The translations under genes and the position numbers were made by a program. Under the pieces are notes generated by a model that was given only the letters and a program-made list of their open reading frames with translations, made no database searches and was not told the DNA's origin. 49,299 nucleotides of DNA from the NCBI GenBank assembly GCA_964583785.1, contig CAZOXS010000022.1, positions 1-49,299 on the forward strand. The letters run 5' to 3'. The stretch is from an uncultured Victivallales bacterium (GTDB taxonomy: Bacteria; Verrucomicrobiota; Kiritimatiellia; UBA8416). Shown here piece after piece: positions 9,881 to 40,712 of this stretch (its first letter is position 1; the number at the start of each line of letters is the position of its first letter).

Positions 9881-10361
9881 GCTCTCCTCCCTATAAAAGC
9901 CATCATACGGACACCGGAAAGACATTCCTGCCGTCAATATAACTGTAGCCCATACTGCCAAAGAATCATCGCGTCTTCAATCTATTTTCGCAAATTTCTA
10001 TACACCGCTCATAACCATCACCAAGAACAACTCATGCGCACCACACGGACACAACGAGCCCGGAGGTCGCATTCACCCAATAAAGTTTCAACATGCATCA
10101 TCTGGCACACCCCAGGATCGAGACCTGTAACTTCATACACTTGTAGCTGCGTTCGCCAGAACGCGGATGGCCCACCCAGGCCGCTCGCGCATTCCGTCCA
10201 CGCTCTGGCGAGCGTAGCGACAACACGTTTCTCATCGGCAGCATTTGGATCACCCCAGCCTTTACAAGCAGCTATCATGCCAACTTGTTGATTGTTGCCT
10301 TTTGGCTCGCCAATACGGCATTTTTGGCTTTCGGACACGATATCCGATTTTAACAACCCCC

Positions 10362-10401: not shown

Positions 10402-13074
10402 TTGCGTATAAAGGCTGTCATGCAACCACCACCATTACCCCGTCGCTTTAATCCGGTCGTTGACCGGTTCGCCACTACCGACTTGCCTTTACAGGAGGTT
10501 ATCGCCGCCGTCGGTCCAGCGCCGCTGCCGCCAATCCTGACCGCCTTGTTGCTGCTGTGCGACTGTCTGGACGGGCGGCGGCTGGCGCGCGATGCGATCG
10601 AGGCCGCCGAGGCGGTGGCGATGAAGGGACAGGATCCGGAGCTGACAATCCTGCTGCTGGCCCGCTGGGCGGAACTGGCCTGCCGCATCTCGCGTCCCTC
10701 GGAGGCCGAGGCCCTGCTGCACCACGCCCGCAGCCTGTTCACAGACCAGACGCACCCGGAGATACGCGCCACGATCCATTTCGCCGCGAGCGTGCTGCAC
10801 GAGGTGCGCGGCAACCAGCAGGAACGCGAGCGATTGCTGCGGCAGACCAACGCTGAACTGCCAGAGCACTCCCCGCGGCGCAAATTCTATCTCTGGGAAC
10901 TCGGCCTGCTGCTGGCCCGCCAGGGGCGCGGCATCGAATTCAGGCCCGAAATGAAGCTGCTGACCTGGCAAACCGGCGCACGCTTCCCGCTGGAGCAGCT
11001 CGACCGCCTGCATTTCATCGATGCCGTCGAGACTGGCCGCACCCGCGCCGCCGCTGAACGCATGTCCGCCCTCGCCACCGCCCCCGCCACCAACCGCCGC
11101 CTCTACCGCGAATACCAGCAGCTGCTGGCCCTGATGCACCGGGTGGGGAGGACTGAAGACGATGGAGTAAAGTCGAAAGTCGAAATTGGGAAAGTCGAAA
11201 TCAGCAGCCAACATCCTGCTTTCACCAACGCAGAACCAAGCACCAGGAACCAAGCACGAAGCACAAGGAACCAAGAACCCGGAACCGACTACACGCCTGT
11301 CTGGATCCAGACGCTCAACCACCTGCTTTCCGATGATGCCGCCGGGGCGTTGCGGTTGGCGCGGCTGGAGGCAAAACGACTGATGGCCTCGATTTTCGGC
11401 ACCGGCTTCGGGGCGCTGAACCTGATCCGCGCCGAACTGGCGGCTGGCAATGCCGAAGCCGCCAATCGCCTGCTCGATATGCGCGCCTCGCGCGGCAATG
11501 CCCATTACCTCGACCCGCTGTTCCGCGCCCGCTGCGCCCTGTTGATGGATCGCCCGCAAGAGGCTGCCGAACGCTTCCGCGAGGCCCAGGCGGCCGCGCA
11601 GCGCTACGACGCCGAAGGCCGCCTCGATTTCGAGCTGCGCCTAGCCCTGGAATTGCGTAGGGGCGAGGCCCTTGTCCACCGTAGCTTTAGCGAAGGCGGA
11701 TGCCTCGCCCCGGCCGACCTGGCCAAAGTCTTTTTTGCCGCAGAGCGCAAGCCCCGAACACCCCCCCTCGCCCCAACGCCCCCCGTGACCCAAGCGGCCG
11801 CCACACCGGCGGGCAAGCGCCTCGTCCCGCGCCTGAAGGCCAAACCCGCACCGCCGGCCCCCGCCGATCCGCGCCTGCCGCCGATCAACGGACGCAGCCC
11901 GAACATCCTGAAATTGCGCGAAACGATCCTGCAAATGGCCAGTCTGGATGTACCGGTGCTTATCACCGGCGAAACCGGCACCGGCAAGGAAGTGGTCGCC
12001 AGCGCTCTGCACACGGCCGGCAACCGGGCGAACAAGCCATTTATCGCGGTCAATTGCAGCGCCATCAGCGAAACGCTGCTCGAATCCGAGCTTTTCGGTC
12101 ACGAACGGGGTTCCTTCACCGGGGCTGATCGCACGACCGGAGGCCTGTTCGAGGATGCCGGCAACGGGACGTTGCTGCTGGACGAGATCGGTGACATTTC
12201 CCCCCGCCTACAGGCGGTGCTGCTGCGCGTGCTGGAAAAAGGCGAGATCCGCGCCATCGGCAGCTCGCAGTCACGCCAGATCCATTGCCGTATTCTGGCG
12301 GCAACCAATGCCGAGCTGGAGGCGCGCGTCGCGCAAGGCACCTTCCGCCAGGATCTGCTCTACCGGCTGCAGCGCCTGACCATCCACGTGCCGCCGCTGC
12401 GTGAGCGTCGCGAGGACATCATGCCGCTGGTCCGGCACTTTCTCGATGAGGGACGCCCGGTCGGCACGCACGCCTCGGTCTCAGCGACCTTCGTCGAAAC
12501 CGCGCGCCAATACGACTGGCCGGGGAATGTGCGCGAATTGCGCAACGTGATCGAGCGCATGCGCCTGACCCATTCCGACAAGCTCACCTACACCGAGGCT
12601 GATCTCGAGATCCGGCGCGCGCCGCTGCCGCCCCGCCCGCTGCCCGAGCGGATACCGCTGCCCGCCAGGGCGGGGGAAGGCAGGGCGGGGGAAGAGCAGC
12701 GATCCTGGACTTCCGAACGGCCTTACAACGCGGCGGACGGGGCGGAACCCGTCCCTCCACTTACAACGCCGCGGACGGGGTGGAACCCGTCCCTCCAGAC
12801 GGCGGACGGGGTGGAACCCGTCCATCACGGGGCGCACAACGAGGCGAAAATCGCGCATTTCCTCCAGCACGGGAATTCCGCGTTGCGTCGCCTCGAACGA
12901 CTCAAAACCATGTTCGCGGAACACGGTAAGCTTACCCGCAGCGAAATCGTCCACATTCTCGGCGTCTCCCCCAATACCGCCACCAAATACCTGAAAACCC
13001 TCTGCGACGAAGGCGTCATCCGCCGCGTCGAGCCCAGCGCCTCGCCCCGCTCCCACTATTTCGAGCAAATTTAA
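10402..13074 (+). CDS. sigma-54-dependent (bEBP-type) AAA+ transcriptional activator with helical-repeat N-domain and C-terminal winged-helix-like HTH
   Basis: Walker A VLITGETGTGKEVVASALH, ESELFGHERGSFTGA (GAFTGA-loop variant), Walker B TLLLDEIGD, sensor II NVRELRNVIERM, C-terminal ILGVSPNTATKYLKTLCDEGVIRRVE. The track start 10402 is TTG; ATG at 10420 is more likely. The CDS contains nucleotide-level repeats (see repeat features). Confidence 0.85.
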   Translation: MRIKAVMQPPPLPRRFNPVVDRFATTDLPLQEVIAAVGPAPLPPILTALLLLCDCLDGRRLARDAIEAAEAVAMKGQDPELTILLLARWAELACRISRPSEAEALLHHARSLFTDQTHPEIRATIHFAASVLHEVRGNQQERERLLRQTNAELPEHSPRRKFYLWELGLLLARQGRGIEFRPEMKLLTWQTGARFPLEQLDRLHFIDAVETGRTRAAAERMSALATAPATNRRLYREYQQLLALMHRVGRTEDDGVKSKVEIGKVEISSQHPAFTNAEPSTRNQARSTRNQEPGTDYTPVWIQTLNHLLSDDAAGALRLARLEAKRLMASIFGTGFGALNLIRAELAAGNAEAANRLLDMRASRGNAHYLDPLFRARCALLMDRPQEAAERFREAQAAAQRYDAEGRLDFELRLALELRRGEALVHRSFSEGGCLAPADLAKVFFAAERKPRTPPLAPTPPVTQAAATPAGKRLVPRLKAKPAPPAPADPRLPPINGRSPNILKLRETILQMASLDVPVLITGETGTGKEVVASALHTAGNRANKPFIAVNCSAISETLLESELFGHERGSFTGADRTTGGLFEDAGNGTLLLDEIGDISPRLQAVLLRVLEKGEIRAIGSSQSRQIHCRILAATNAELEARVAQGTFRQDLLYRLQRLTIHVPPLRERREDIMPLVRHFLDEGRPVGTHASVSATFVETARQYDWPGNVRELRNVIERMRLTHSDKLTYTEADLEIRRAPLPPRPLPERIPLPARAGEGRAGEEQRSWTSERPYNAADGAEPVPPLTTPRTGWNPSLQTADGVEPVHHGAHNEAKIAHFLQHGNSALRRLERLKTMFAEHGKLTRSEIVHILGVSPNTATKYLKTLCDEGVIRRVEPSASPRSHYFEQI
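11165..11290. repeat. in-CDS low-complexity block made of short tandem words (AGTCGAA x3, GGAACCAAG x4)
   Basis: AGTCGAA at 11171, 11178 and 11193. GAACCAAGCAC/GGAACCAAG at 11233, 11246, 11267 and 11281. Translated as KSKVEIGKVEISS...EPSTRNQARSTRNQEPGT inside the activator N-domain. Confidence 0.7.
12666..12828. repeat. in-CDS tandem repeats: 2 x 15 nt, then 2.8 x 38/39 nt, each long unit carrying a GGACGGG-N6-CCCGTCC hairpin
   Basis: CAGGGCGGGGGAAGG at 12666 and 12681. Long units start at 12722, 12760 and 12799. Hairpin cores at 12735-12754, 12773-12792 and 12804-12823. Unit 1 is 38 nt, so the same nucleotide repeat is read in two frames (PYNAADGAEPVPP versus LTTPRTGWNPSLQ). Confidence 0.85.
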
Positions 13075-20962: not shown

Positions 20963-21390
20963 TGATGACGATGCTGAAAAACAGTTTGTGCGTATTGATG
21001 GGGATTGGACTGCTCGCGATGACTGCGTGCGCCAAGGATGCCGAGACGCCGGCACCGGCGGCCGAGGCGAAGGTCGCCTTGCCGAAGCTGGTCGATCTGG
21101 GTGCCAAGGCTTGCATCCCCTGCAAGAAGATGGCCCCGATCCTGGAGGAACTGACCACGGAATACAAAGGCGTCTTCGATGTCGAGTTCATCGATGTCTG
21201 GCAACCCGAGAACCAGGAAAAAGCCAAGACTTACGGGATCAAGTCGATCCCGACGCAGATTTTCCTGGACTCCAAAGGTAAGGAACTGGGGCGTCATGAG
21301 GGTTTCATCGCCAAAGAGGATATCCTGAAGAAGTGGCAAGCACTTGGCGTGAGTATTAAGACGAAAGCGGATATGGAACACAACGAATGA
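20959..21390 (+). CDS. thioredoxin-fold lipoprotein (CxxC)
   Basis: Internal ATG 20959 of track ORF 20599..21390, preceded by AGGAGG. MMMTMLKNSLCVLMGIGLLAMTAC (lipobox), KACIPCKKMAPILEEL, IPTQIFLDSKGKEL. The last codons (MEHNE-stop) lie inside the first 16-nt repeat unit. Confidence 0.8.
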   Translation: MMMTMLKNSLCVLMGIGLLAMTACAKDAETPAPAAEAKVALPKLVDLGAKACIPCKKMAPILEELTTEYKGVFDVEFIDVWQPENQEKAKTYGIKSIPTQIFLDSKGKELGRHEGFIAKEDILKKWQALGVSIKTKADMEHNE

Positions 21391-21523
21391 TCGACACAAC
21401 GAATATGGGACACAACGAATTTTTTGCACAACGAATATGGAACACAGCAAATGGGGAATCATATAATATGGTAACGATGTTCACCCTTATTCCCATTCGT
21501 TGTGCAGCCCATTCGTTGTGCAA
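21379..21523. repeat. 16-nt tandem-unit palindrome: 5 forward units (CACAACGAATATGGRA) followed by 2 inverted units
   Basis: CACAACGAAT at 21379, 21395, 21411 and 21427, plus degenerate CACAGCAAAT at 21443 (exact 16-nt phase). Inverted ATTCGTTGTG at 21495 and 21511. GGGAAT/ATTCCC extends the stem around a loop of about 30 nt. Confidence 0.9.
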
Positions 21524-21570: not shown

Positions 21571-22395
21571 ATGCAATCACAAGGTGACAATGTGACTAAT
21601 GCTTTGAACGATAATCTTATCTATCCTGAGTTGTCCTACAAGATCATGGGCGCGGCGATGCACGTCCATAATCAACTGGGGCCTGGGTGGGATGAAGATG
21701 CCTATCATTCTGCATTACTACACGCGTTGCGAAAAGCCAGCCTTAAAACAGAAAGCAAGCTGCGAGGTGTGCTTAAACAGCGCGAGCTGTATGCTGACAC
21801 ATTTGAGCTGGACATCCTTGTCGAAGATTCGATCATTCTGGAATTAAAACACCTTGTGGGCAAGTTTCACCCCGCTCACATGATTCAATTGATCAATTAT
21901 CAGAAATTCTGGAAGAAACAATTAGGAATTCTGCTCAACTTTGGTCTTGATCGCCTTCAATTTGAACGGATCCCCTTTACTCCGCGTACCGGCCCATTAA
22001 CCAGTAACGATGCCTACAAACACTTTCAGGAAACCAACCCCGCAAAAGCGAACCACGTTGAATCCATTCTTCAAGCAATTGTGGACGCCCACGGGCTTGG
22101 ATATGGCACCTATGTCTACCGCAATCTTGTACGTACCGAATGTCATTTCAAAAACTGCTCCTGCGAAATGCCGGTCATCCCTCTTTATTACGACTCTTTA
22201 ATGCTCGGGGAAAAACAGGCAGACGTTCTCTGCCTTGATTCCGATCTGCTGCTATTAGTGAATGCTCAGCGCGAAAAAACCTCCGATATTCTTTTAGCGC
22301 GCATGTTGAGCTACCTTCGCAAAACCAATTTATCTGATGGCATTATCGCCACCTTTGGATCTAACGAACTATACCTCAAATATGTTTCCCCATAA
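21571..22395 (+). CDS. tandem GxxExxY-type (PD-(D/E)XK-like) protein; the second copy is degenerate
   Basis: ATG 21571 lies within ORF 21502..22395. The N-half has the family pattern (YPELSYKIMGAAMHVHNQLGPGWDEDAYHSALLHALRKASL...FELDILVEDSIILELKHL...LINYQKFWKKQLGILLNFG). The C-half repeats the pattern weakly (GLGYGTYVYRNLV...ADVLCLDSDLLLLVNAQRE...LSYLRKTNLSDGIIATFG). Visibly more AT-rich than its neighbours. Confidence 0.65.
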   Translation: MQSQGDNVTNALNDNLIYPELSYKIMGAAMHVHNQLGPGWDEDAYHSALLHALRKASLKTESKLRGVLKQRELYADTFELDILVEDSIILELKHLVGKFHPAHMIQLINYQKFWKKQLGILLNFGLDRLQFERIPFTPRTGPLTSNDAYKHFQETNPAKANHVESILQAIVDAHGLGYGTYVYRNLVRTECHFKNCSCEMPVIPLYYDSLMLGEKQADVLCLDSDLLLLVNAQREKTSDILLARMLSYLRKTNLSDGIIATFGSNELYLKYVSP

Positions 22396-23718: not shown

Positions 23719-23946
23719 ATGGTAACGGCAAAAGTATTCAAGTCGGGGCGGAGTCAGGCGGTACGGGTGCCAATGCGTTATCGCTTTCACTCCTCCGAGG
23801 TTAATGTACTGGCGACGGCAGACGGTCTACTACTGACGGAAAAAGGACCGTGGGAACTGTTCCGGGAAGGCGTTGACGAGCTGTCTGGTGACTTTATGCC
23901 TGACCGTGTCCAGCCGCCACTCGAGGATCGGGTTTCCCTGGCATGA
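23719..23946 (+). CDS. vapB: VapB-type antitoxin (AbrB/SpoVT fold)
   Basis: MVTAKVFKSGRSQAVRVPMRYRF, 75 aa, 4-nt overlap with the PIN gene. Confidence 0.8.
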   Translation: MVTAKVFKSGRSQAVRVPMRYRFHSSEVNVLATADGLLLTEKGPWELFREGVDELSGDFMPDRVQPPLEDRVSLA

Positions 23947-24416
23947 GTGGCGGTGCCTATATGCTCGACACGAATATCCTCGTTTATATGCTGCGGGGCT
24001 TCAAGGCGGCGAATGCGGGACGGGATATCCACCAGCGGGCGGAACGGATCCGCAACCGGATCGAGCGTGAATTACGGCATGGCGCGGCGATCTATATTTC
24101 CATGGTCACAATCTGCGAACTGGAGTATGGCGCTGGCAAAGCGGTTGATCCGGCAAAAGAGCGCCGGGCGCTTTCCAAGATCCTGGCTCCCTTCGAGCGG
24201 GCGGAGGGCGATTCCGTGAACCTGCCGCGACATTATGGCGAGATCCGCTGCGAACTGGAACAGGCCGGACAGCCAATCGGGGCTATGGATCTCATGATCG
24301 CTGCGCATGCCCGCTCACTGGGTGTAACCTTGGTAACAAACAACGTCAGCGAATTTAATAGGGTTAAGGGGCTGAAGGTAGCCAACTGGGCGGAAACGGG
24401 CACGTCCAAGGAATAA
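23943..24416 (+). CDS. vapC: VapC PIN-domain ribonuclease toxin
   Basis: YMLDTNILVYML...ICELEYG...GAMDLMIAAHARSLGVTLVTNNVSEF (the acidic PIN residues are present). Confidence 0.85.
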   Translation: MSGGAYMLDTNILVYMLRGFKAANAGRDIHQRAERIRNRIERELRHGAAIYISMVTICELEYGAGKAVDPAKERRALSKILAPFERAEGDSVNLPRHYGEIRCELEQAGQPIGAMDLMIAAHARSLGVTLVTNNVSEFNRVKGLKVANWAETGTSKE

Positions 24417-24421
24417 GCATC

Positions 24422-25053
24422 ATGATTGATATCCCACAGCAAATGGCCGATGCGTTTATCCAGGCCTGCCACCAGGCCGCCGCCCAGCAACTGCTGCGTT
24501 GCAGCAGCGGCAACCTGTCGTTGCGGCTGGATGCTGACCGCCTCATCGCCACGGCCTCGGGAAGCTGACTGGGTGAGCTCACCGCCGAGCAGATTGCCCT
24601 TTGCCGGATCTCGGACGGCTCCCGTCTGGAAGGGCCCCGGCCAACAGTGGAAATCAACTTTCATGCCGGCATCATGCGCAACCGGCCCGACATCGGGGTG
24701 GTCCTGCATTTTCAATCCAATGCCGCCACAACCATCGCCTGTATGCAGCCGGAGAAAATCAACTTCAACGCCATCCCTGAGATTCCGTTCCGGATCGGAT
24801 CGATCGGTCATGTTCCTACCTGACGCCGGGCTCGCAGGAACTGGCGACCGCCGTATCGGACGCCATGAGGCAACACAATCTGGTCATGCTCCAGAATCAC
24901 GGGCAGGTCTTGGTGGCCAAGAATTACGCCGACTCCATCCCGAATGCGGTCTTCTTCGTGCTGGCCTGCGAGATCATCCTGCGCGCCGGCCAGGATCTAT
25001 GCCCGCTGACACCGGAGGCGGTTGCAAGCCTGCGCGCCAGTGGGCGTTGCTAG
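24422..25053 (+). pseudogene. class II aldolase/adducin-family gene disrupted by an in-frame TGA and a 1-nt deletion
   Basis: My translation: MIDIPQQMADAFIQACHQAAAQQLLRCSSGNLSLRLDADRLIATASGS-TGA(24566-24568)-LGELTAEQIALCRISDG...EINFHAGIMRNRPDIGVVLHFQSNAATTIAC...IGSIGHVP. The frame is then lost near 24817 (CCTAC where CCTTAC is expected) and resumes as LTPGSQELATAVSDAMRQHNLVMLQNHGQVLVAKNYADSIPNAVFFVLACE. Confidence 0.7.
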
Positions 25054-25081
25054 GCTGATGTCGACCACGCATAAATTCTAT

Positions 25082-25111
25082 TTGACAGTTAGCTAACCAT
25101 GCATGTATCGT
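25082..25111 (+). promoter_or_regulatory. arsR promoter with embedded palindromic operator candidate
   Basis: TTGACA (25082-25087), 18-nt spacer containing the perfect 10-bp palindrome GTTAGCTAAC (25088-25097), TATCGT (25106-25111). ATG at 25119. Confidence 0.45.
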
Positions 25112-25118
25112 AGGCGGC

Positions 25119-25442
25119 ATGAAAACACAACTGGAGCAATTGAAAGCCTTGTCGGACCGTAACCGTCTGCGGGTCGTCGCCGCCTTGATGAATACCAGCG
25201 AGCTCTGCGCCTGCCAGATCAGCGAGCTGCTCGGAGTCAGTGGGGCCACGGCCTCACGCCACATGGATTTGCTGATCCGGGCCGGATTGATCGATAGCCG
25301 CAAATCCGGTCGCTGGGTCTACTACAAGCTTAGCCCATCATTTCCGCCTCAGCTTCGCGAATGGCTCAAAAAACCGCTCTCGAAAGATCCGGAGATGAAG
25401 GCGGATCTTGGCAATGTGAAGAAAATTACGGGATGTAAATAG
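25119..25442 (+). CDS. arsR: ArsR-family arsenic-responsive repressor
   Basis: LSDRNRLRVVAALMNTSELCACQISELLGVSGATASRHMDLLIRAGLIDSRKSGRWVYYKL. Confidence 0.85.
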   Translation: MKTQLEQLKALSDRNRLRVVAALMNTSELCACQISELLGVSGATASRHMDLLIRAGLIDSRKSGRWVYYKLSPSFPPQLREWLKKPLSKDPEMKADLGNVKKITGCK

Positions 25443-25462
25443 GCTGTGAGATATTTAATGAA

Positions 25463-25564
25463 TCGGCTGACGATTACGGGCGACGATTACGGATTACGAT
25501 TCAATGTTGTCGGGCAAGGAGAGCTAATCGTCCATCGTAATCGTCGCCCGTTATCGTCAACCGA
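25463..25564. repeat. 13-nt tandem-unit palindrome (3 forward + 3 inverted units, 39-nt arms, 24-nt loop)
   Basis: Left arm TCGGCTGACGATTACGGGCGACGATTACGGATTACGATT (25463-25501). Reverse complement of the right arm (25526-25564) is TCGGTTGACGATAACGGGCGACGATTACGATGGACGATT. Followed by CATGTTTTTG. Confidence 0.9.
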
Positions 25565-25605
25565 CATGTTTTTGTAATTTAGAAGAACAAAAGAAGGACA
25601 CAAAT

Positions 25606-26055
<450 letters not shown>

Positions 26056-26154
26056 GGCGCAAAGATCGCAAAGAATAGACAATGATAACTTAGCGGCTTT
26101 GCGAGAAAGACCACCTCTTTCAGACCCTCAGGCGCAAACAAAGGAGAGCAAAAG

Positions 26155-26364
26155 ATGAACGAACAGACGAAGGAACTGATTGCAATCGGAACATCCGTGG
26201 GCGCGCATTGCCAGCCGTGTCTGGCATACCATGTCAACAAGGCGAAGGAGATGGGCATCGCGGAGGACGACATCCGCGAGGCTATCACGATCGGCCACAT
26301 GGTGGAGAAAGGTGCGATGTCAGCCATGCGCGAATTCTCGCAAGGAGTACTGGAAAATGAGTAA
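26155..26364 (+). CDS. small AhpD/carboxymuconolactone-decarboxylase-like protein (CxxC)
   Basis: ELIAIGTSVGAHCQPCLAYHVNKAKEMGIAEDDIREAI, 69 aa. Confidence 0.7.
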   Translation: MNEQTKELIAIGTSVGAHCQPCLAYHVNKAKEMGIAEDDIREAITIGHMVEKGAMSAMREFSQGVLENE

Positions 26365-26671
26365 GCAAATGGAAGTATTTGATCCGCCGATGTGCTGTTC
26401 GAGCGGAGTTTGTGGGGCCAGCGTAAATACCAAACTGGTGCAGTTTGCCGGCGACCTGGAAGCTGTCAGGCAGAAGGGGGTCGCCGTAAATCGCTACAAC
26501 CTGTCGTCCGAACCCGCCGCTTTCGTGCAGAATGCGGTCGTCAAGCAGGCCCTTAACGATGATGGGAACGATTGCCTTCCGCTGGTCCTGATCGACGGCA
26601 AGGTTGTCAGCAAAGGCCGCTACCCCGCCCGCAACGAATTACTGGAAGCCGCCGGACTGGATGCAGAGTGA
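26357..26671 (+). CDS. arsD: ArsD arsenic metallochaperone/repressor
   Basis: Internal ATG 26357 of ORF 26180..26671. MSKQMEVFDPPMCCSSGVCG...LPLVLIDGKVVSKGRYP. Confidence 0.85.
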   Translation: MSKQMEVFDPPMCCSSGVCGASVNTKLVQFAGDLEAVRQKGVAVNRYNLSSEPAAFVQNAVVKQALNDDGNDCLPLVLIDGKVVSKGRYPARNELLEAAGLDAE

Positions 26672-28437
26672 TGCAGGATTTCATCAAAGAGGCCCCGAAA
26701 TTCACATTCTTCACCGGCAAGGGCGGTGTGGGCAAAACCTCCATGGCCTGCACGACGGCGGTCGGACTGGCCGGGCTTGGGCGCAAGGTCCTGCTCATCA
26801 GCACCGATCCAGCGTCGAACCTCGACGAGGTGCTCGGCTGCCCGCTGGGTTCCAAGCCGGTACCGGTTGCCGGATCTGTTGGTCTGGAGGCCATGAACAT
26901 CAATCCGATGCAGGCGGCGGCCGAATACCGCGAGCGCATGGTCGGCCCCTATCGCGGTGTGCTGCCCGAAGCCTCGATCCAGCAGATGGAGGAACAACTC
27001 TCGGGGGCCTGCACGGTCGAAATTGCCGGCTTCAACGAATTCTCGAAATTCATCGGCGACGAACAGGCCATCACGGCGTACGACCACATCGTGCTCGACA
27101 CCGCCCCCACCGGCCACACCCTGCGCCTGCTCAATCTGCCGGCGGCCTGGACGGAGTTCATGGCCGATAACAAAACCGGTAGCTCATGCCTAGGCCCGCT
27201 TGCAGGCTTGGACGAGCAGCAAAAACTTTTCGCAAAGGTGATTGCCGCCCTGAAGAACCCGCACAAAACACGTCTGGCAATGGTTGCCCGTGCGGATGCG
27301 ATGAGCCTCAAGGAGGCCGCCCGCGCTGCCGCCGAGCTGCGCGAACAGGGCATGACCAACCAATGCCTGATCGTCAACGGCCTGTTTCTCAAGGATTCGG
27401 ACGATCCAACCGCCAAGGCCTTTGCCAACCAATCGCGCACGATGCTGCAAAACATTCCGGCATCACTCCAGAAGTTACCGCTCTATAGGGTGCCATTCCG
27501 GGCTGCGGGCATCATGGGCATGGAAGCATTGCAATGCGTCAGCCGTGACGAACCGGATATTGCGCAGAACGCGATATCCGATCAGAAGATCGAACTTCCG
27601 CCCCTCAACGACTGGGAAAGCTTCTTCGATGAACTGGCCGCCCCAGGCAAGGGTGTCATCCTGACGATGGGCAAGGGCGGCGTCGGCAAGACCACCATGG
27701 CCGCGCTGATCGCCTCCGAGCTGGCACAGCGGGGACATTCCGTCCTGCTCTCCACGACCGATCCCGCCGCGCATATCGCGGAAACACTGGGGGCGGCACA
27801 CGACAACATCGAGGTGGCCCGTATTGATCCCAAGGCCGAGACGGCCAACTATGTTGAAAGTGTGCTGGCAAAGAATCGAGGCATCCTATCCCAGCAGGAT
27901 ATGGAACTTTTAGAGGAGGAGATGCGATCGCCCTGCATCGAGGAGATTGCCGTGTTCCAGGCCTTCGCCAACACCGTCGCCTGCGGCACCGGACAATTCA
28001 TCGTGCTCGACACGGCCCCGACCGGCCACACACTACTGCTGCTCGATTCGACGCAGGCCTACCACCGCGAGATCTCACGTTCCGCTGAGGATCTGCCCGA
28101 GGCGGTCAAGAAACTGCTGCCGCGCATCCGCGACCCGAAGTTCACGCGCATGCTGATTGTCACGCTTCCGGAGGCGACCCCCGTACACGAGGCCGCCGCC
28201 TTGCAAGCCGATTTGAAGCGCGCGGGCATTACCCCCCACGGCTGGATTATCAACCGCAGCTTTGCCGCTACCGGCACCAGCGACCCCGTGCTGGTAGCCA
28301 AGGGGCACCACGAGCTGGCGTATATCGAGGAGGTCTGCCGCGACTACTCGGCGCACACGGTTCTGGCCCCATGGATCGGCGAGGAACTGGCAGGCGAGGC
28401 TAACCTGGATATGTTGAAGCAGGTGCGCGAAGGATAG
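26671..28437 (+). CDS. arsA: ArsA arsenite-stimulated ATPase (two-domain)
   Basis: ATG 26671 overlaps the arsD TGA (TGATG). Two P-loops (FFTGKGGVGKTS, LTMGKGGVGKTT) and two DTAPTGHTL signatures. Confidence 0.95.
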   Translation: MQDFIKEAPKFTFFTGKGGVGKTSMACTTAVGLAGLGRKVLLISTDPASNLDEVLGCPLGSKPVPVAGSVGLEAMNINPMQAAAEYRERMVGPYRGVLPEASIQQMEEQLSGACTVEIAGFNEFSKFIGDEQAITAYDHIVLDTAPTGHTLRLLNLPAAWTEFMADNKTGSSCLGPLAGLDEQQKLFAKVIAALKNPHKTRLAMVARADAMSLKEAARAAAELREQGMTNQCLIVNGLFLKDSDDPTAKAFANQSRTMLQNIPASLQKLPLYRVPFRAAGIMGMEALQCVSRDEPDIAQNAISDQKIELPPLNDWESFFDELAAPGKGVILTMGKGGVGKTTMAALIASELAQRGHSVLLSTTDPAAHIAETLGAAHDNIEVARIDPKAETANYVESVLAKNRGILSQQDMELLEEEMRSPCIEEIAVFQAFANTVACGTGQFIVLDTAPTGHTLLLLDSTQAYHREISRSAEDLPEAVKKLLPRIRDPKFTRMLIVTLPEATPVHEAAALQADLKRAGITPHGWIINRSFAATGTSDPVLVAKGHHELAYIEEVCRDYSAHTVLAPWIGEELAGEANLDMLKQVREG

Positions 28438-28463
28438 CAAGATGGGCAACGTAAAGGCGGGAG

Positions 28464-28547
28464 AGATTAAGGCGAAAGATTAGGTGAAAAGATTAAGGTT
28501 GGTCCTTGGCGCCACTAATCTTTCGCCTTAATCGTTCGCCCTAATCT
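28464..28547. repeat. 13-nt tandem-unit palindrome (3 forward + 3 inverted units), same family as 25463..25564
   Basis: Forward units AGATTAAGGCGAA, AGATTAGGTGAAA and AGATTAAGGTTGG (28464, 28477, 28490). Inverted units ..CCACTAATCT, TTCGCCTTAATCG and TTCGCCCTAATCT (ending 28521, 28534, 28547). TAATCGTTCGCCC here resembles TAATCGTCGCCC in the arsR-arsC element. Confidence 0.9.
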
Positions 28548-28627
28548 GTATTGAAAATAGGTTGCAATTATAGGCCTGAATACGAGTTTTCAGATATAGC
28601 AGTACGCAACAACAAGGAGAATGAGAG

Positions 28628-29680
28628 ATGGAAAAGCAGAAATTGGATATAAGTTTTTTTGACCGGTACTTAACCGTCTGGGTGGCGTTGTGCATGGTGG
28701 CAGGTGTTTTGATCGGAAAATTCCTGCCGGGCATCCCCGCCTTCCTCGGCAAATTCGAGTATGCGAACGTCTCGATCCCGATTGCGGTGCTGATCTGGCT
28801 GATGATCTGGCCGATGATGATGAAAGTGAATTTCACCAGCATCACGGATGTCGGCAAGAACCCGAAGGGCCTGTATGTGACCTGGGTGGTCAACTGGCTG
28901 ATCAAGCCGTTCACGATGTTCGGGATTGCCTCGTTCTTTTTCCATGTGGTGTTCAAGTCGCTGATCCCACCCGATCTGGCCATGGACTATCTCGCCGGTG
29001 CCATCCTGCTGGGGGCCGCCCCCTGCACGGCGATGGTCTTTGTGTGGAGTCACCTGACCAGGGGGAACCCTGCCTACACTGTTGTTCAGGTCGCAACCAA
29101 CGACTTGATCATACTTGTTGCCTTTGTCCCGATCGTGGCCCTGCTGCTCGGGGTTGGCGGCATCCAGGTCCCCTGGATGACTCTGTTTCTATCCGTCGTC
29201 CTTTTCGTGGTCATCCCGCTGGCGGGCGGCATGCTCACCCGCGGCCATGTCATCAAGATCAAGGGCGAGGACTACTTCAACCAATCGTTCCTGCCGAAAT
29301 TCAGTAACTTCACCATTAGCGGGCTGCTGCTGACCCTCGTGCTGATCTTTTCCTTCCAGGGCGAAATCATCCTGAACAATCCCCTGCATATCGCCCTGAT
29401 CGCCGTACCGCTCATCATCCAGACCTACCTGATTTTCTTCATCGCCTATTTCGCGGCAAAACGCCTGAAACTGACACATTGCGTGGCGGCTCCAGGTGGC
29501 ATGATCGGTGCCTCCAACTTCTTCGAACTGGCGGTAGCCGTGGCCATCTCGATGTTTGGCGCTCGTTCACCCGTCGTGCTGGCAACCATAGTCGGCGTCC
29601 TGGTCGAAGTGCCCGTCATGCTGAGCCTGGTCAAGTTCGCCAACCGCACCTCACACTGGTTTCCGGTGAAGCAAAAGTGA
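28628..29680 (+). CDS. acr3: ACR3-family arsenite efflux transporter
   Basis: ISFFDRYLTVWVALCMVAGVLIGKFLPG...LLGAAPCTAMVFVW, 350 aa, 10-TM pattern. Confidence 0.9.
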   Translation: MEKQKLDISFFDRYLTVWVALCMVAGVLIGKFLPGIPAFLGKFEYANVSIPIAVLIWLMIWPMMMKVNFTSITDVGKNPKGLYVTWVVNWLIKPFTMFGIASFFFHVVFKSLIPPDLAMDYLAGAILLGAAPCTAMVFVWSHLTRGNPAYTVVQVATNDLIILVAFVPIVALLLGVGGIQVPWMTLFLSVVLFVVIPLAGGMLTRGHVIKIKGEDYFNQSFLPKFSNFTISGLLLTLVLIFSFQGEIILNNPLHIALIAVPLIIQTYLIFFIAYFAAKRLKLTHCVAAPGGMIGASNFFELAVAVAISMFGARSPVVLATIVGVLVEVPVMLSLVKFANRTSHWFPVKQK

Positions 29681-29795
29681 CGGTACTACCGTTGATTTCA
29701 TTCCGATCTAGTGGTCCGACGAATCTCATCGGCAGGCTTGCATCGGGTCGCGATCTCGGCTAGAAATGAAGCACTATGAATGGTGACTACAGGGG

Positions 29796-30017
29796 GTGGC
29801 GATGCTAGCGGCAAAGGTACGCATGGGGGCGGTTGGGGACCAGGACCGTTTCCGGCGTGAGGATATGCTGGCGATGACTCCCGCAGAACGCATTATGACC
29901 CTGATCCGGCTCCGCAATACCCAATTCGGCGCAATCTCCCGTCCCATTCGTGATGGCGGAATCGTCAGCTACCGGACCTTTGATCGGCATGTTGTCCCCC
30001 GGAGACCCGCAACATGA
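29796..30017 (+). CDS. small hypothetical protein (possible antitoxin-like partner)
   Basis: 73-aa ORF with a 4-nt overlap (30014-30017) with the downstream nucleotidyltransferase-fold gene. No recognisable motif. Confidence 0.4.
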   Translation: MAMLAAKVRMGAVGDQDRFRREDMLAMTPAERIMTLIRLRNTQFGAISRPIRDGGIVSYRTFDRHVVPRRPAT

Positions 30018-30496
30018 CCTCGGACGCCAAAATGCCGGATATTTCACCGGATATGCACGATTTTCTTGGGCTGCTGATCAAGCACGGTGCTCAATTCGCG
30101 CTTTGCGGCGGGTTTGCTGTGACGTATTACGGATTTATCCGCACCACCATGGATATTGACATTCTGGTTTTTCCATCAGCAGCCAATGCAGCCCGCATCA
30201 TGCAGGCGCTTGCGGAATTCGGGTTCGCTAATGCAGGGATCGTGCAGTCTGTATTCGAAAGTCCAGGGGCGGTGATCACGCTAGGGGCGCAGCCGAACCA
30301 GATCGACCTGCTGACCTCGATGTCGACAGAAGCTGCCGATGCGGTATTTGCCGACCTGCATATCACGGAGATCTGGGGTATGCGGATTCCGGTCGTCAGT
30401 CGCCGCTCGCTCTTGCAGGCAAAGAAAGAGGCGAACCGTCCCAAGGACCGGATCGACTACGAGGAGCTGACGGCCCTTTCAGAACGATCCGTTTAA
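30014..30496 (+). CDS. nucleotidyltransferase-fold protein (MNT/AbiEii/DUF6036-like)
   Basis: FALCGGFAVTYYGFIRTTMDIDILV (G-G..R.T.DIDI pattern of the pol-beta NTase fold) and C-terminal RSLLQAKKEANRPKDRIDYEEL. Confidence 0.55.
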   Translation: MTSDAKMPDISPDMHDFLGLLIKHGAQFALCGGFAVTYYGFIRTTMDIDILVFPSAANAARIMQALAEFGFANAGIVQSVFESPGAVITLGAQPNQIDLLTSMSTEAADAVFADLHITEIWGMRIPVVSRRSLLQAKKEANRPKDRIDYEELTALSERSV

Positions 30497-32389: not shown

Positions 32390-32523
32390 CGCCTCTCTGA
32401 TCCGCGCAGCCAGGAACCTCGCTTTCGGTTGTCGCTTTCGGTTTGCTATTGTTGGCCCCGGCATTACACTGTGGAGCACGTCATTTATTCACCGGAAATG
32501 GTGTTAACCGTGGAGGATTAGAT

Positions 32524-36314: not shown

Positions 36315-36489
36315 CCCACAGCAATTCTCATTATGGGCACCAACCCGCTGAGATTCCGGCTTCCGCCTTCGCGCTGCGCGCTACGGCGGACCGTGGGAAA
36401 GCCGGTACTACAAACACGTTTTTGCCTGGTTTTGCGGTGTTTGTAGTTCCGCCTTCAGGCGGCAGCACCCATAATGAGGATTGCTGGGG
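36315..36489. repeat. ~175-bp nested palindromic element (MITE-like or structured RNA)
   Basis: Terminal inverted repeats: CCCACAGCAATTCTCATTATGGGCAC (36315-36340) versus the reverse complement of 36465-36489, CCCCAGCAATCCTCATTATGGGTGC. Inner hairpin ACTACAAACAC (36407-36417) / GTGTTTGTAGT (36437-36447), plus further GC hairpins (CCGGCTTCC...GGAAAGCCGG, CCGCCTTCAGGCGG). Confidence 0.8.
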
Positions 36490-39260: not shown

Positions 39261-39337
39261 TTGTTGACAAGGTTGACCTTATTGACCCTGTTGACCTTGT
39301 TGTCAATAAGGTCATCTTGGTCAACCCGGTCAAAAAA
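39261..39337. repeat. 9-nt tandem-unit palindrome R2 (5 x TTGAC-type units then 3 x GTCA-type units)
   Basis: TTGAC/TTGTC at 39264, 39273, 39282, 39291 and 39300. GTCA at 39311, 39320 and 39329. Exact 9-nt phase, ending GGTCAAAAAAA. Confidence 0.9.
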
Positions 39338-39351
39338 ATTGCAGTCTGCCC

Positions 39352-40101
39352 TCATGCCGGTCTCGTCCCCTTGCAATCCGGGTAGGCGGTGCATCCCCAG
39401 AAATCGCCCTTGGCCGACCGGCGCCCGCGCATGGGCTTGCCGCATTGGGGGCATTCCGGTGTGTCAGCCGCTTGCTGCTGGTCGCGCACTTCGACCCGCC
39501 GGGCGGTCAGGCGCTCGCGGAATCCGCCGCCCTCCTCGAAGGCCTTGCCTTGCGACTCCTTCAGGCGCTTGAGCATCTTCAGGACGCGGCCGAGCAGGAT
39601 GAGCATGACGTTGGCGACCACTACACCATCGTCGGAATCGAGCCAGCGGGCGTATTTCCGGCGCTGCGCCAGCGCGTGGCGGGCCGACTCATGCACCATG
39701 TCGTCAGTAAAAGGTGCATCATCGAGCGCGATGGCATTGACGGCCTTGACTTCGGGATCATGTACCGACCACGGCAGTTCGCCGCGGTCGAGGATGAAGA
39801 TCTCGTAATCGCCGCGCAGCTCGCTCAAACTCGCGCGGGCGACATCGGTCAGGCGCATCTCGGTGTCCTTCGAGGTCGAGGCGCGCTCCGAACCCTCGAT
39901 AATGTTCTGGCGTCCGCTGCGGGCGGCCTGGGTCATCTGGTCGTACTGCCGCCCCTTGGGGTCGTAGAATTTGTCGGTCTCGCGATGGTCGAAGGTCAGG
40001 AACTGGCGGCAGAACCGCAAGGTATCGAGCTGCACGATCGTGGCAAGCGTAAAGGCGTGCAGCCGACGAAAACCGCCGTGCTTGTCAAAAAGCTCAGGCA
40101 T
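39352..40101 (-). CDS. four-helix-bundle protein (23S rRNA IVS-protein family, with suffix domain) fused to a topoisomerase-type C4 zinc finger
   Basis: Trimmed to MPELFDKHGGFRRLHAF (ATG 40101, AAGGAG RBS); the track ORF to 40428 runs through the repeats and into the tmRNA gene. QAARSGRQNIIEGSERASTSKDTEMRLTDVARASLSELRGDYE matches the family pattern. C-terminal CPQCGKPMRGRRSAKGDFWGCTAYPDCKGT. Confidence 0.75.
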   Translation of the reverse strand: MPELFDKHGGFRRLHAFTLATIVQLDTLRFCRQFLTFDHRETDKFYDPKGRQYDQMTQAARSGRQNIIEGSERASTSKDTEMRLTDVARASLSELRGDYEIFILDRGELPWSVHDPEVKAVNAIALDDAPFTDDMVHESARHALAQRRKYARWLDSDDGVVVANVMLILLGRVLKMLKRLKESQGKAFEEGGGFRERLTARRVEVRDQQQAADTPECPQCGKPMRGRRSAKGDFWGCTAYPDCKGTRPA

Positions 40102-40123: not shown

Positions 40124-40277
40124 GTGACCTGGTTGACCTTATTGACCTTGTTGCCAATCGGGCCAATAAGGCCAACAGGTTTAACACCGGCATCATACAA
40201 ACCACTATCACCCGCGTCAACAAGGTCATTTGACAAAAACCCGTCAGCAAGCTCAATCCGGTCAATAGGGTCATCAG
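40124..40277. repeat. 9-nt tandem-unit palindrome R3 (about 17 phased units), same orientation as R2
   Basis: GGTTGACCTTATTGACC (40131-40147) is identical to 39272-39288. TGACC at 40125, 40134 and 40143, then TGCCA/GGCCA units. Inverted GTCAAC/GGTCAT/GTCAAT units from 40216 to 40275. Confidence 0.9.
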
Positions 40278-40309
40278 CATGGTGTTGGCCATTGCCGGAA
40301 TGGCGGACA

Positions 40310-40355
40310 GCCTTCGCCAAGGCCCCGGCTTGCCTACCGAAGCCTTGGCGAAGGC
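40310..40355 (-). terminator. 13-bp perfect hairpin abutting the tmRNA 3' CCA
   Basis: GCCTTCGCCAAGG (40310-40322) and CCTTGGCGAAGGC (40343-40355) with a 20-nt loop. No U-tract follows on the minus strand, so the terminator function is uncertain. Confidence 0.45.
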
Positions 40356-40712
40356 TGGTGGAGGCGGCGGGAGTCGAACCCGCGTCCGCAGTGGAGTCAC
40401 TCAAGTATCTACGTGTGTATTCTGCCATTAGGTCTCGCCACGGTAACTACGGACAGACACGCTGTCACCGCCGCCAGTCTCAGCATTGTTTCGCAGGTCG
40501 CGCCTGAGACGCACACGCCCGACTATCCTGCTGTCGTCGCCCCGGTCCGTTTAGCAGGTGTCAACGGCGGAACGCGTGGCCCGTTATTTAGGCCGCGAGA
40601 GCTAATTCAGTATCAGCACTTAATGTTTTGCCCGGATTTTTTACGAGGCCAACCAGACATCCTCGACACGCAACCTCAGCTTCAACCATCACGTCGAAAC
40701 CAAATCGCCCCC
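40356..40712 (-). ncRNA. ssrA: tmRNA (transfer-messenger RNA)
   Basis: Minus-strand 5' GGGGGCGATTTGGTTTCGACG... and 3' ...GGACGCGGGTTCGACTCCCGCCGCCTCCACCA (T-arm plus acceptor with a G3:U pair). Tag frame GGC AAA ACA TTA AGT GCT GAT ACT GAA TTA GCT CTC GCG GCC TAA gives (A)GKTLSADTELALAA, with the stop at 40588-40590. Confidence 0.92.

Follow-up and report, generated by a model that had tools for sequence, protein, structure and literature searches.

The window, the whole stretch of 49,299 nucleotides that was analysed, contains an ars operon whose elements all lie on the forward strand, in the order arsR, hairpin A, arsC, a CMD-like ORF, arsD, arsA, hairpin B and acr3 (Table 1). The gene names given by the first-pass annotation (ArsR, LMW-phosphatase ArsC, ArsD, ArsA and Acr3) are right. 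The nearest relatives of ArsA are found in Kiritimatiellae MAGs. In a scan of positions 24800-30200, the sole promoter-like site of the operon is located 5' of arsR. Toxin-antitoxin-like pairs (MazE-like and PIN; a small ORF and AbiEii) are interleaved with the metal-resistance genes at 23719-24416 and 29796-30496.

Table 1. Features of the window and arsA-acr3 spacers of the window and related loci (percentages give ArsA identity)
Feature	Position or spacer length	Strand	Evidence, location or remark
Array E, five forward 16-nt units, core CACAACGAAT	21371-21453	+	5' of GxxExxY gene
Array E, two inverted units	21492-21522	+	whole array E 21371-21522
GxxExxY / PDDEXK_3 gene (TIGR04256, PF13366)	21571-22395	+	between arrays E and F
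Array F, four inverted 17-nt units CATTCGCTGTGCAA	22400-22463	+	
Promoter-like site TTGACA-18-TATCGT	25082-25111	+	upstream of arsR
arsR (HTH_5)	25119-25442	+	
Hairpin A, whole element	25463-25564	+	arsR-arsC spacer
Hairpin A left arm, 13-nt units CGGCTGACGATTA / CGGGCGACGATTA / CGGATTACGATTC	25464-25502	+	third unit degenerate
Hairpin A central region, contains ribosome-binding-site-like AAGGAGAG	25503-25524	+	sequence reading, fold
Hairpin A right arm TAATCGTCCATCG / TAATCGTCGCCCG / TTATCGTCAACCG	25525-25563	+	
T-rich tract CATGTTTTTGTAATTT	25565-25580	+	3' of hairpin A
arsC (LMW phosphatase type)	25606-26055	+	
arsA	26671-28437	+	588 aa in gene calls on metagenome contigs
Hairpin B left arm, three 13-nt units	28464-28502	+	sequence, repeat search, TRF
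Hairpin B left unit 1, AGATTAAGGCGAA	28464-28476	+	
Hairpin B left unit 2, AGATTAGGTGAAA	28477-28489	+	
Hairpin B left unit 3, AGATTAAGGTTGG	28490-28502	+	
Hairpin B centre, 9 nt, TCCTTGGCG	28503-28511	+	sequence, fold
Hairpin B right arm, inverted units	28512-28547	+	sequence, repeat search, fold, TRF
Hairpin B right unit 1, CCACTAATCT	28512-28521	+	shortened to 10 nt
Hairpin B right unit 2, TTCGCCTTAATCG	28522-28534	+	
Hairpin B right unit 3, TTCGCCCTAATCT	28535-28547	+	
acr3 (SBF family)	28628-29680	+	
Hairpin C, 9-nt units GTTGACCTT	39261-39330	-	directly downstream of four-helix-bundle gene
Four-helix-bundle-suffix protein gene with Topo zinc ribbon	39352-40101	-	bracketed by hairpins C and D
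Hairpin D, 9-nt GTTGACCTT units	40125-40180	-	directly upstream of four-helix-bundle gene
Spacer, window	190 bp		3+3 hairpin, 13-nt units
Spacer, L016 (89%)	125 bp		3+3 hairpin, 9-nt units, CACGAAG core, unrelated to B
Spacer, L032 (88%)	128 bp		3+3 hairpin, 9-nt units, CACGAAG core, unrelated to B
Spacer, L019 (87%)	116 bp		3+3 hairpin, 9-nt units, CACGAAG core, unrelated to B
Spacer, L033 (87%)	214 bp		hairpin, 12-nt GGTTAAGTGTG units
Spacer, L017/L018 (87%; near-identical loci)	230 bp		large non-tandem hairpin
Spacers, L011, L020, L012, L034, L035 (87-77%)	38, 28, 13, 12, 2 bp		no hairpin

Hairpin B is located in the spacer between the co-oriented arsA and acr3 genes. It had been described as a palindrome of three plus three 13-nt units at 28464-28547, and it reads exactly so; repeat, period and fold tests agree. 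The repeat search pairs arms of 32 nt with 81% complementarity and also finds 19 nt that pair perfectly when the register is moved by one unit, and TRF gives a period of 13 in each arm. The RNA folds at -50 kcal/mol as compared to -29.9 +/- 3.4 kcal/mol for 200 dinucleotide shuffles (z -5.9), none of which was as stable. The spacer is identical, base for base, in 10 independent metagenome assemblies of the same population and is therefore not an assembly artefact. The same-population contigs (L001-L010, 99.2-100% identity) carry no covariation information. Hairpin B is a real, non-random element. The terminator scan of 24800-30200 gave nothing at hairpin B; a U-tract is absent, and GTATTGAAAA comes next.

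Hairpin A has a period of 13; its fold energy is -57.8 kcal/mol (z -6.8), and GTTTTTGT comes only after the extended stem. In the fold, CAT is paired into the stem, so that GUUUUUGU comes directly after it. The T-rich tract 3' of hairpin A is a possible partial terminator after arsR; the terminator scan (24800-30200) found no site at this tract. The first-pass annotation noticed a core common to both elements of the ars operon, and this is borne out (TAATCGTTCGCC at 28529-28540 in B, TAATCGTCGCCC at 25538-25549 in A). The similarity of A and B is above chance, with a local alignment score of 27 versus 14.6 +/- 2.3 in the shuffled control. This score was reached by one of 300 shuffles and by one of 500 synthetic 3+3 palindromes made from random 13-mers, and the scores of A or B with the other hairpins in the data set are only 9-15. 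The shared 13-nt period and the above-chance similarity support A and B being related to each other.

The suggestion of a repeat family defined by architecture plus a short core holds for the architecture, which recurs in the window and in relatives, but not for the core (TAATCG..CGCC), which is not defining; other members of the class have unrelated units of 8, 9, 12 and 16-17 nt. The two weaker relatives proposed at the same time did not hold up. The one at 26057-26105 is merely a marginal hairpin (z -1.8 for 26040-26125, with 10 of 200 shuffles as stable), and the one at 32419-32444 is a twofold direct repeat without fold signal (z +0.7 for 32395-32480). A pattern scan for further members matched only A and B in the window and all fetched loci when the derived GATTA pattern was used; the 13-nt GATTA unit type has two copies in 49 kb. 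The two-arm GATTA pattern gave no match in viral contigs, and the single plasmid match of hairpin B by blastn was insignificant (E 0.8). With Rfam at gathering thresholds, only tmRNA and no rRNA was found in the window; in E-value mode, hairpins A and B gave only miRNA-precursor look-alikes far under the cutoffs.

For comparison, 12 other related arsA-acr3 loci (11 independent; ArsA identity 89%-77%) were located and then fetched. The ArsA scan of genome contigs gave three loci, and that of metagenome contigs gave two distant loci only (52-60% identity). Hairpin B is not conserved ars machinery; it is absent or replaced in the orthologous ars operons (Table 1). The similarity between hairpin B and the hairpin in the same spacer of L033 is not significant (12 of 200 shuffles reach the score). 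At the arsR-arsC junction, the genes overlap or abut in L016, L032, L033 and L034, and L017 has an unrelated hairpin with 8-nt GT-rich units. Since the spacers differ among related ars loci, the same spacers have been filled repeatedly, with hairpins alike in architecture and not in sequence. Between L016 and L019, the orthologous hairpins show changes at 5 of 23 unpaired versus 2 of 48 paired positions (hand count), and one of the two paired changes (A to G) keeps a G.U pair, which lends small support to a constraint on the stem. In a strand comparison meant to reveal selection at the RNA level, the sense transcript had the more stable fold in only 7 of 11 hairpins (mean -2.1 kcal/mol). Another palindrome of the window, in the spacer before a sulfatase gene (36316-36489; 22-nt inverted arms CCACAGCAATTCTCATTATGGG and CCCATAATGAGGATTGCTGGGG, 130-nt loop), is non-tandem and recalls the large hairpin of the L017 arsA-acr3 spacer. 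In a Kiritimatiellales MAG (L012, 8826-8892), a hairpin with 30-nt arms and an 8-nt rhythm lies directly 3' of acr3; its CGCAAAGA-like units resemble CGCAAAGA of the weak 26057 element of the window.

Hairpins of this kind are more frequent in the window than in shuffled sequence. A simple hairpin finder gave seven hairpins scoring at least 14 versus 0-2 per shuffle (ten dinucleotide shuffles), and four with the same tandem period in both arms versus none in the 10 shuffles. Two further pairs of arrays bracket genes. Arrays E and F enclose a GxxExxY gene, and the left part of E is complementary to F (score 48 versus 13.2 +/- 2.2). Hairpins C and D bracket the gene of a four-helix-bundle-suffix protein, which matches TIGR04258 above cutoff, PF05635 ('23S rRNA-intervening sequence protein') and TIGR02436 under their cutoffs and, weakly, the S23p structure 2gsc. 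A perfect 16-bp hairpin abuts the 3' end of a minus-strand tmRNA (40308-40357 and 40356-40712), and hairpin D is located about 175 nt beyond. Elsewhere in the window, a palindrome with 30-nt arms (80% complementary, 23-nt loop) is located at 10141-10223, upstream of a sigma-54 activator ORF (10402-13074). This ORF contains heptamer arrays (AAAGTCG x4 and GAACCAR x7, 11169-11286) and a twofold direct repeat of 38 nt (12722-12797). As these repeats have no inverted partner, they probably encode low-complexity linkers.

GxxExxY genes are also located inside tandem-unit arms in other genomes, and this gene-in-hairpin arrangement occurs in several phyla. The generality of the link was assessed on about 15 GxxExxY loci; those outside the phylum came from tblastn in PLSDB and from an IMG/VR contig. 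In L019, the GxxExxY ORF sits exactly between three forward 9-nt units (CACCACGAA AAGCACGAAG GACACGAAG) and three inverted ones (CTTCGTGTT CTTCGCGAA CTTCGTGGT), and two gene-less hairpins with units as in these arms come next, flanking arsA. L017 and L032 have the same arm plan with other units, the gene of L032 having CCCACGGATGG arrays on either side. The flank test for GxxExxY genes gave z 10 (L019) and z 27 (L017) in Kiritimatiellae, z 18 in Bacteroides (L021), z 8 in Bernardetia (L023) and z 10.7 in the IMG/VR contig (L025). Inverted 3+3 arms of 9-nt units enclose the GxxExxY genes of Bacteroides, Bernardetia, the IMG/VR contig and Sphingomonas (L024), the last by reading. Outside the phylum, the insertions (X) are co-oriented between housekeeping genes (radA-X-FAD, ade-X-manC and, in Sphingomonas, fabD-X-fabG). 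As exceptions, the arrays are direct and not inverted at the genes of L027, L029 and L030, and there are hardly any arrays at those of L028 and L036. The GxxExxY profile search of viral contigs gave only 2 loci.

The GxxExxY genes of Kiritimatiellae thioredoxin/ars operons occupy three spacers (Trx-157-aa gene, arsC-CMD and arsD-arsA). They lie at 21571-22395 in the window, 5124-5819 in L017, 2508-2999 in L036, 1856-2761 in L032 and 9451-9822 in L019. The insertion at the Trx site is kept in more distant relatives, where the arrays have partly decayed. The marginal hairpin of the window at 26040-26125 lies in the arsC-CMD spacer, which in L032 holds a GxxExxY gene, and could be a decayed remnant. 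In Sphingomonas (L024, 1495-1923, between fabD and fabG), the annotated GxxExxY protein runs on for 19 aa at its C terminus, and this extension is translated from the right inverted arm.

One consensus, TTCACCACGAAGAGCACnAAGGACACGAAGGAA, is common to the left arms of gene-less Kiritimatiellae hairpins and of copies that carry the gene (alignment A3); the latter come from four sources, namely a Kiritimatiellae locus, Bacteroides, Sphingomonas and the IMG/VR contig. The arms thus travel with the GxxExxY gene, and the gene-less hairpins in the arsA-acr3 spacers of relatives derive from GxxExxY-carrying elements; the homology holds for L016, L019 and L032. The units of A and B show no significant similarity to any of the GxxExxY or four-helix-bundle arms (scores 9-15), and none of the gene-carrying copies found in the 49-kb window and the fetched loci has the 13-nt GATTA unit. 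The link between hairpin B and the gene-carrying elements thus rests on architecture, position and neighbourhood and not on sequence.

The AlphaFold model of the GxxExxY domain encoded in the window (pLDDT 91) matches Cas4 SSO0001 best (TM 0.67), with the Holliday-junction resolvase Hjc next, and the residues D, E and K do not vary across the alignment. The model is consistent with GxxExxY being an active minimal nuclease. GxxExxY proteins are barely mentioned in the literature searched; one survey of PD-(D/E)XK proteins names PF13366 and gives its function as 'Unknown'.

We consider it probable that hairpins A and B belong, as copies without a gene, to a class of inserted stem-loops with tandem-unit arms that occupies Kiritimatiellae spacers and whose gene-carrying versions hold GxxExxY. 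The class would be a habit of this Kiritimatiellae lineage, filling spacers between co-oriented genes, and its gene-carrying versions hold in the loop a small gene for a putative nuclease with a predicted PD-(D/E)XK, Cas4/Hjc-like fold. B is a lineage-specific insertion of a recurrent hairpin type in the arsA-acr3 spacer, and A is a related insertion 3 kb upstream, between arsR and arsC. As a gene-less copy of a spacer-filling class, B would not be part of arsenic regulation. There is no GxxExxY ORF in the loops of B (9 nt) and A (about 22 nt), and both may be derivatives that lack the gene, comparable to a MITE or to an IVS without ORF, and may have arisen through local copying. A cognate gene-carrying copy would be present, now or formerly, elsewhere in the genome, and the GxxExxY nuclease may take part in the spread. 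In the ars mRNA, B is predicted to form an imperfect duplex of about 35-40 bp. By analogy to the intervening sequences of 23S rRNA, RNase III probably cuts this duplex. Such a cut would part the arsRCDA and acr3 messages, or leave stem halves capping the fragments, and the host would then bear the insertion at little cost.

The closest documented anatomy is that of the 23S IVS of Coxiella burnetii, a selfish element with a 28-bp terminal stem and an S23p four-helix-bundle ORF in its loop (PMC4990558). Its 5' arm contains tandem heptamers in variable number, and it is excised by RNase III (PMC4990558). Like the IVS, A and B have the form of an inserted element whose long terminal inverted repeats pair into an extended stem. 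In both cases the small ORF in the loop is optional, with ORF-less and ORF-bearing forms coexisting, and the four-helix-bundle-suffix gene of the window is itself bracketed by hairpins of the B class. The differences are in location, arms and cargo. B lies in the mRNA spacer of a protein-coding operon and not in helix 25 or 45 of 23S rRNA, its arms consist entirely of three or more tandem units, and the commonest cargo of the class is the GxxExxY nuclease rather than S23p. Excision by RNase III is established in Coxiella, whereas here it is a presumed step.

An origin in situ, with no mobile element involved, is rather unlikely. Slippage would duplicate the units, intrastrand template switching (quasipalindrome correction) would mirror the arm, and genes such as GxxExxY would merely land in, or be tolerated in, the loops. 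The unit sequences do vary by site, and neighbouring arrays are the most alike (A and B 27, C and D 45, E and F 48). The perfect 19-nt pairing of B in a shifted register is what is expected of slippage-prone arrays, and no target-site duplication was seen. This origin is opposed by the CACGAAG-type arms, which are homologous across Kiritimatiellae, Bacteroides, Sphingomonas and the IMG/VR contig and travel with the gene; such homology across phyla points to arm-gene-arm units that were inherited or transferred, not to arms that grew locally and independently. The short spacers of five relatives also contain no incipient repeats.

Selection by the host for an RNA element inside the operon seems improbable as the primary explanation. 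Like REP or BIME sequences, such an element would shield the arsRCDA message upstream of it against 3' exonucleases or act as a partial terminator and set the ArsA:Acr3 ratio. The location between cistrons of one operon, the very stable folds, the position of GUUUUUGU directly after hairpin A and the better conservation of stems than loops between L016 and L019 would all suit this role. However, B lacks a U-tract, the terminator scan is empty at both A and B, five related operons make do with spacers of 2-38 bp and no hairpin, and unrelated genes are flanked by the same architecture. A role as stabiliser or attenuator is possible as a secondary effect and is compatible with A and B being gene-less copies of an inserted stem-loop.

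In Proteobacteria, REP, BIME and REPIN sequences are extragenic palindromes in and between operons (PMC3116915, PMC3733652). REPINs are doublets that form long hairpins, the linked gene RAYT is itself flanked by repeats, and functions proposed for such palindromes include mRNA stabilisation and termination (PMC3116915, PMC3733652). It is highly improbable that A and B are a MITE or REPIN in the classical sense, mobilised by a transposase or RAYT gene at another locus, even though the inverted arms, the intergenic location and several related copies close by would fit. There is no target-site duplication at B (flanks GGGAG and GTATT) or at A (AATGAA and CATGTT), and no transposase or RAYT was found by Pfam in the ORFs scanned (about 30). 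The ends of the two elements read AGATT.../...AATCT and TCGGC.../...ACCGA and carry no GTAG/CGTC tag. A conserved REP sequence is absent. The unit here varies by locus and the arms are internally tandem arrays, whereas REP is one high-copy family built on a conserved palindrome of 20-40 bp. The Correia/NEMIS elements of Neisseria and the enterobacterial ERIC sequences are gene-less inverted-repeat insertions that are co-transcribed with their neighbours. Their RNA hairpins are cut by RNase III, in the case of Correia, or change mRNA stability. They differ from the present class in having defined terminal inverted repeats, target-site duplications and one sequence family, none of which is found here. 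The cyanobacterial STRR sequences are intergenic arrays of 7-nt tandem units with a proposed post-transcriptional action. The TAACTGA repeats of Beggiatoaceae are likewise intergenic heptamer arrays (PMC4679880). In STRR and TAACTGA repeats, one unit recurs genome-wide, mainly in direct arrays, in contrast to the paired inverted arrays with locus-specific units seen here. Hairpin B is best regarded as a variant of the IVS and REPIN/MITE kinds of element, not as a new ars regulator.

An arsenic-specific cis site, whether an ArsR operator array or an arsenite-responsive attenuator, is scarcely credible: two related elements do occur within one ars operon, but they are absent or replaced by unrelated sequence in the 12 other ars operons (11 independent), the promoter-like site is upstream of arsR, and no Rfam family matches at threshold. 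The comparative and scan evidence led to rejection of the ArsR-operator and terminator readings. An integron attC site was dropped on inspection, there being no GTTRRRY-type core and no integrase in the ORFs scanned.

A wider proposal, which we offer only tentatively, is that the tandem-unit hairpins are the ends, miniature forms and perhaps targets of undescribed 'gene-in-hairpin' selfish elements that have spread through operon spacers across bacterial phyla. The GxxExxY nuclease would recognise the hairpin or cruciform of its own arms and drive copying to new spacers. Excision by RNase III would make the insertion nearly silent, an intervening sequence for mRNAs, and the 23S rRNA IVSs would be a special case that was noticed first. 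If true, this would join three subjects now dealt with apart, namely the large GxxExxY (PF13366) family, the IVS-type four-helix-bundle proteins and the long operon-spacer palindromes of PVC-group genomes, and would give a testable model of RNase III-processed, nuclease-linked hairpins inside operons. It would also account for gene callers extending ORFs through the arms, as in the extension of the Sphingomonas GxxExxY protein.

On the best reading, hairpin B is filed as a gene-less member of an IVS-like class of tandem-unit hairpins linked to GxxExxY and four-helix-bundle genes. The consequence for the ars operon is modest: the hairpin may uncouple the fates of the arsA and acr3 mRNAs, and relatives do without it. 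Annotators should not take such palindromes for pathway-specific regulators.
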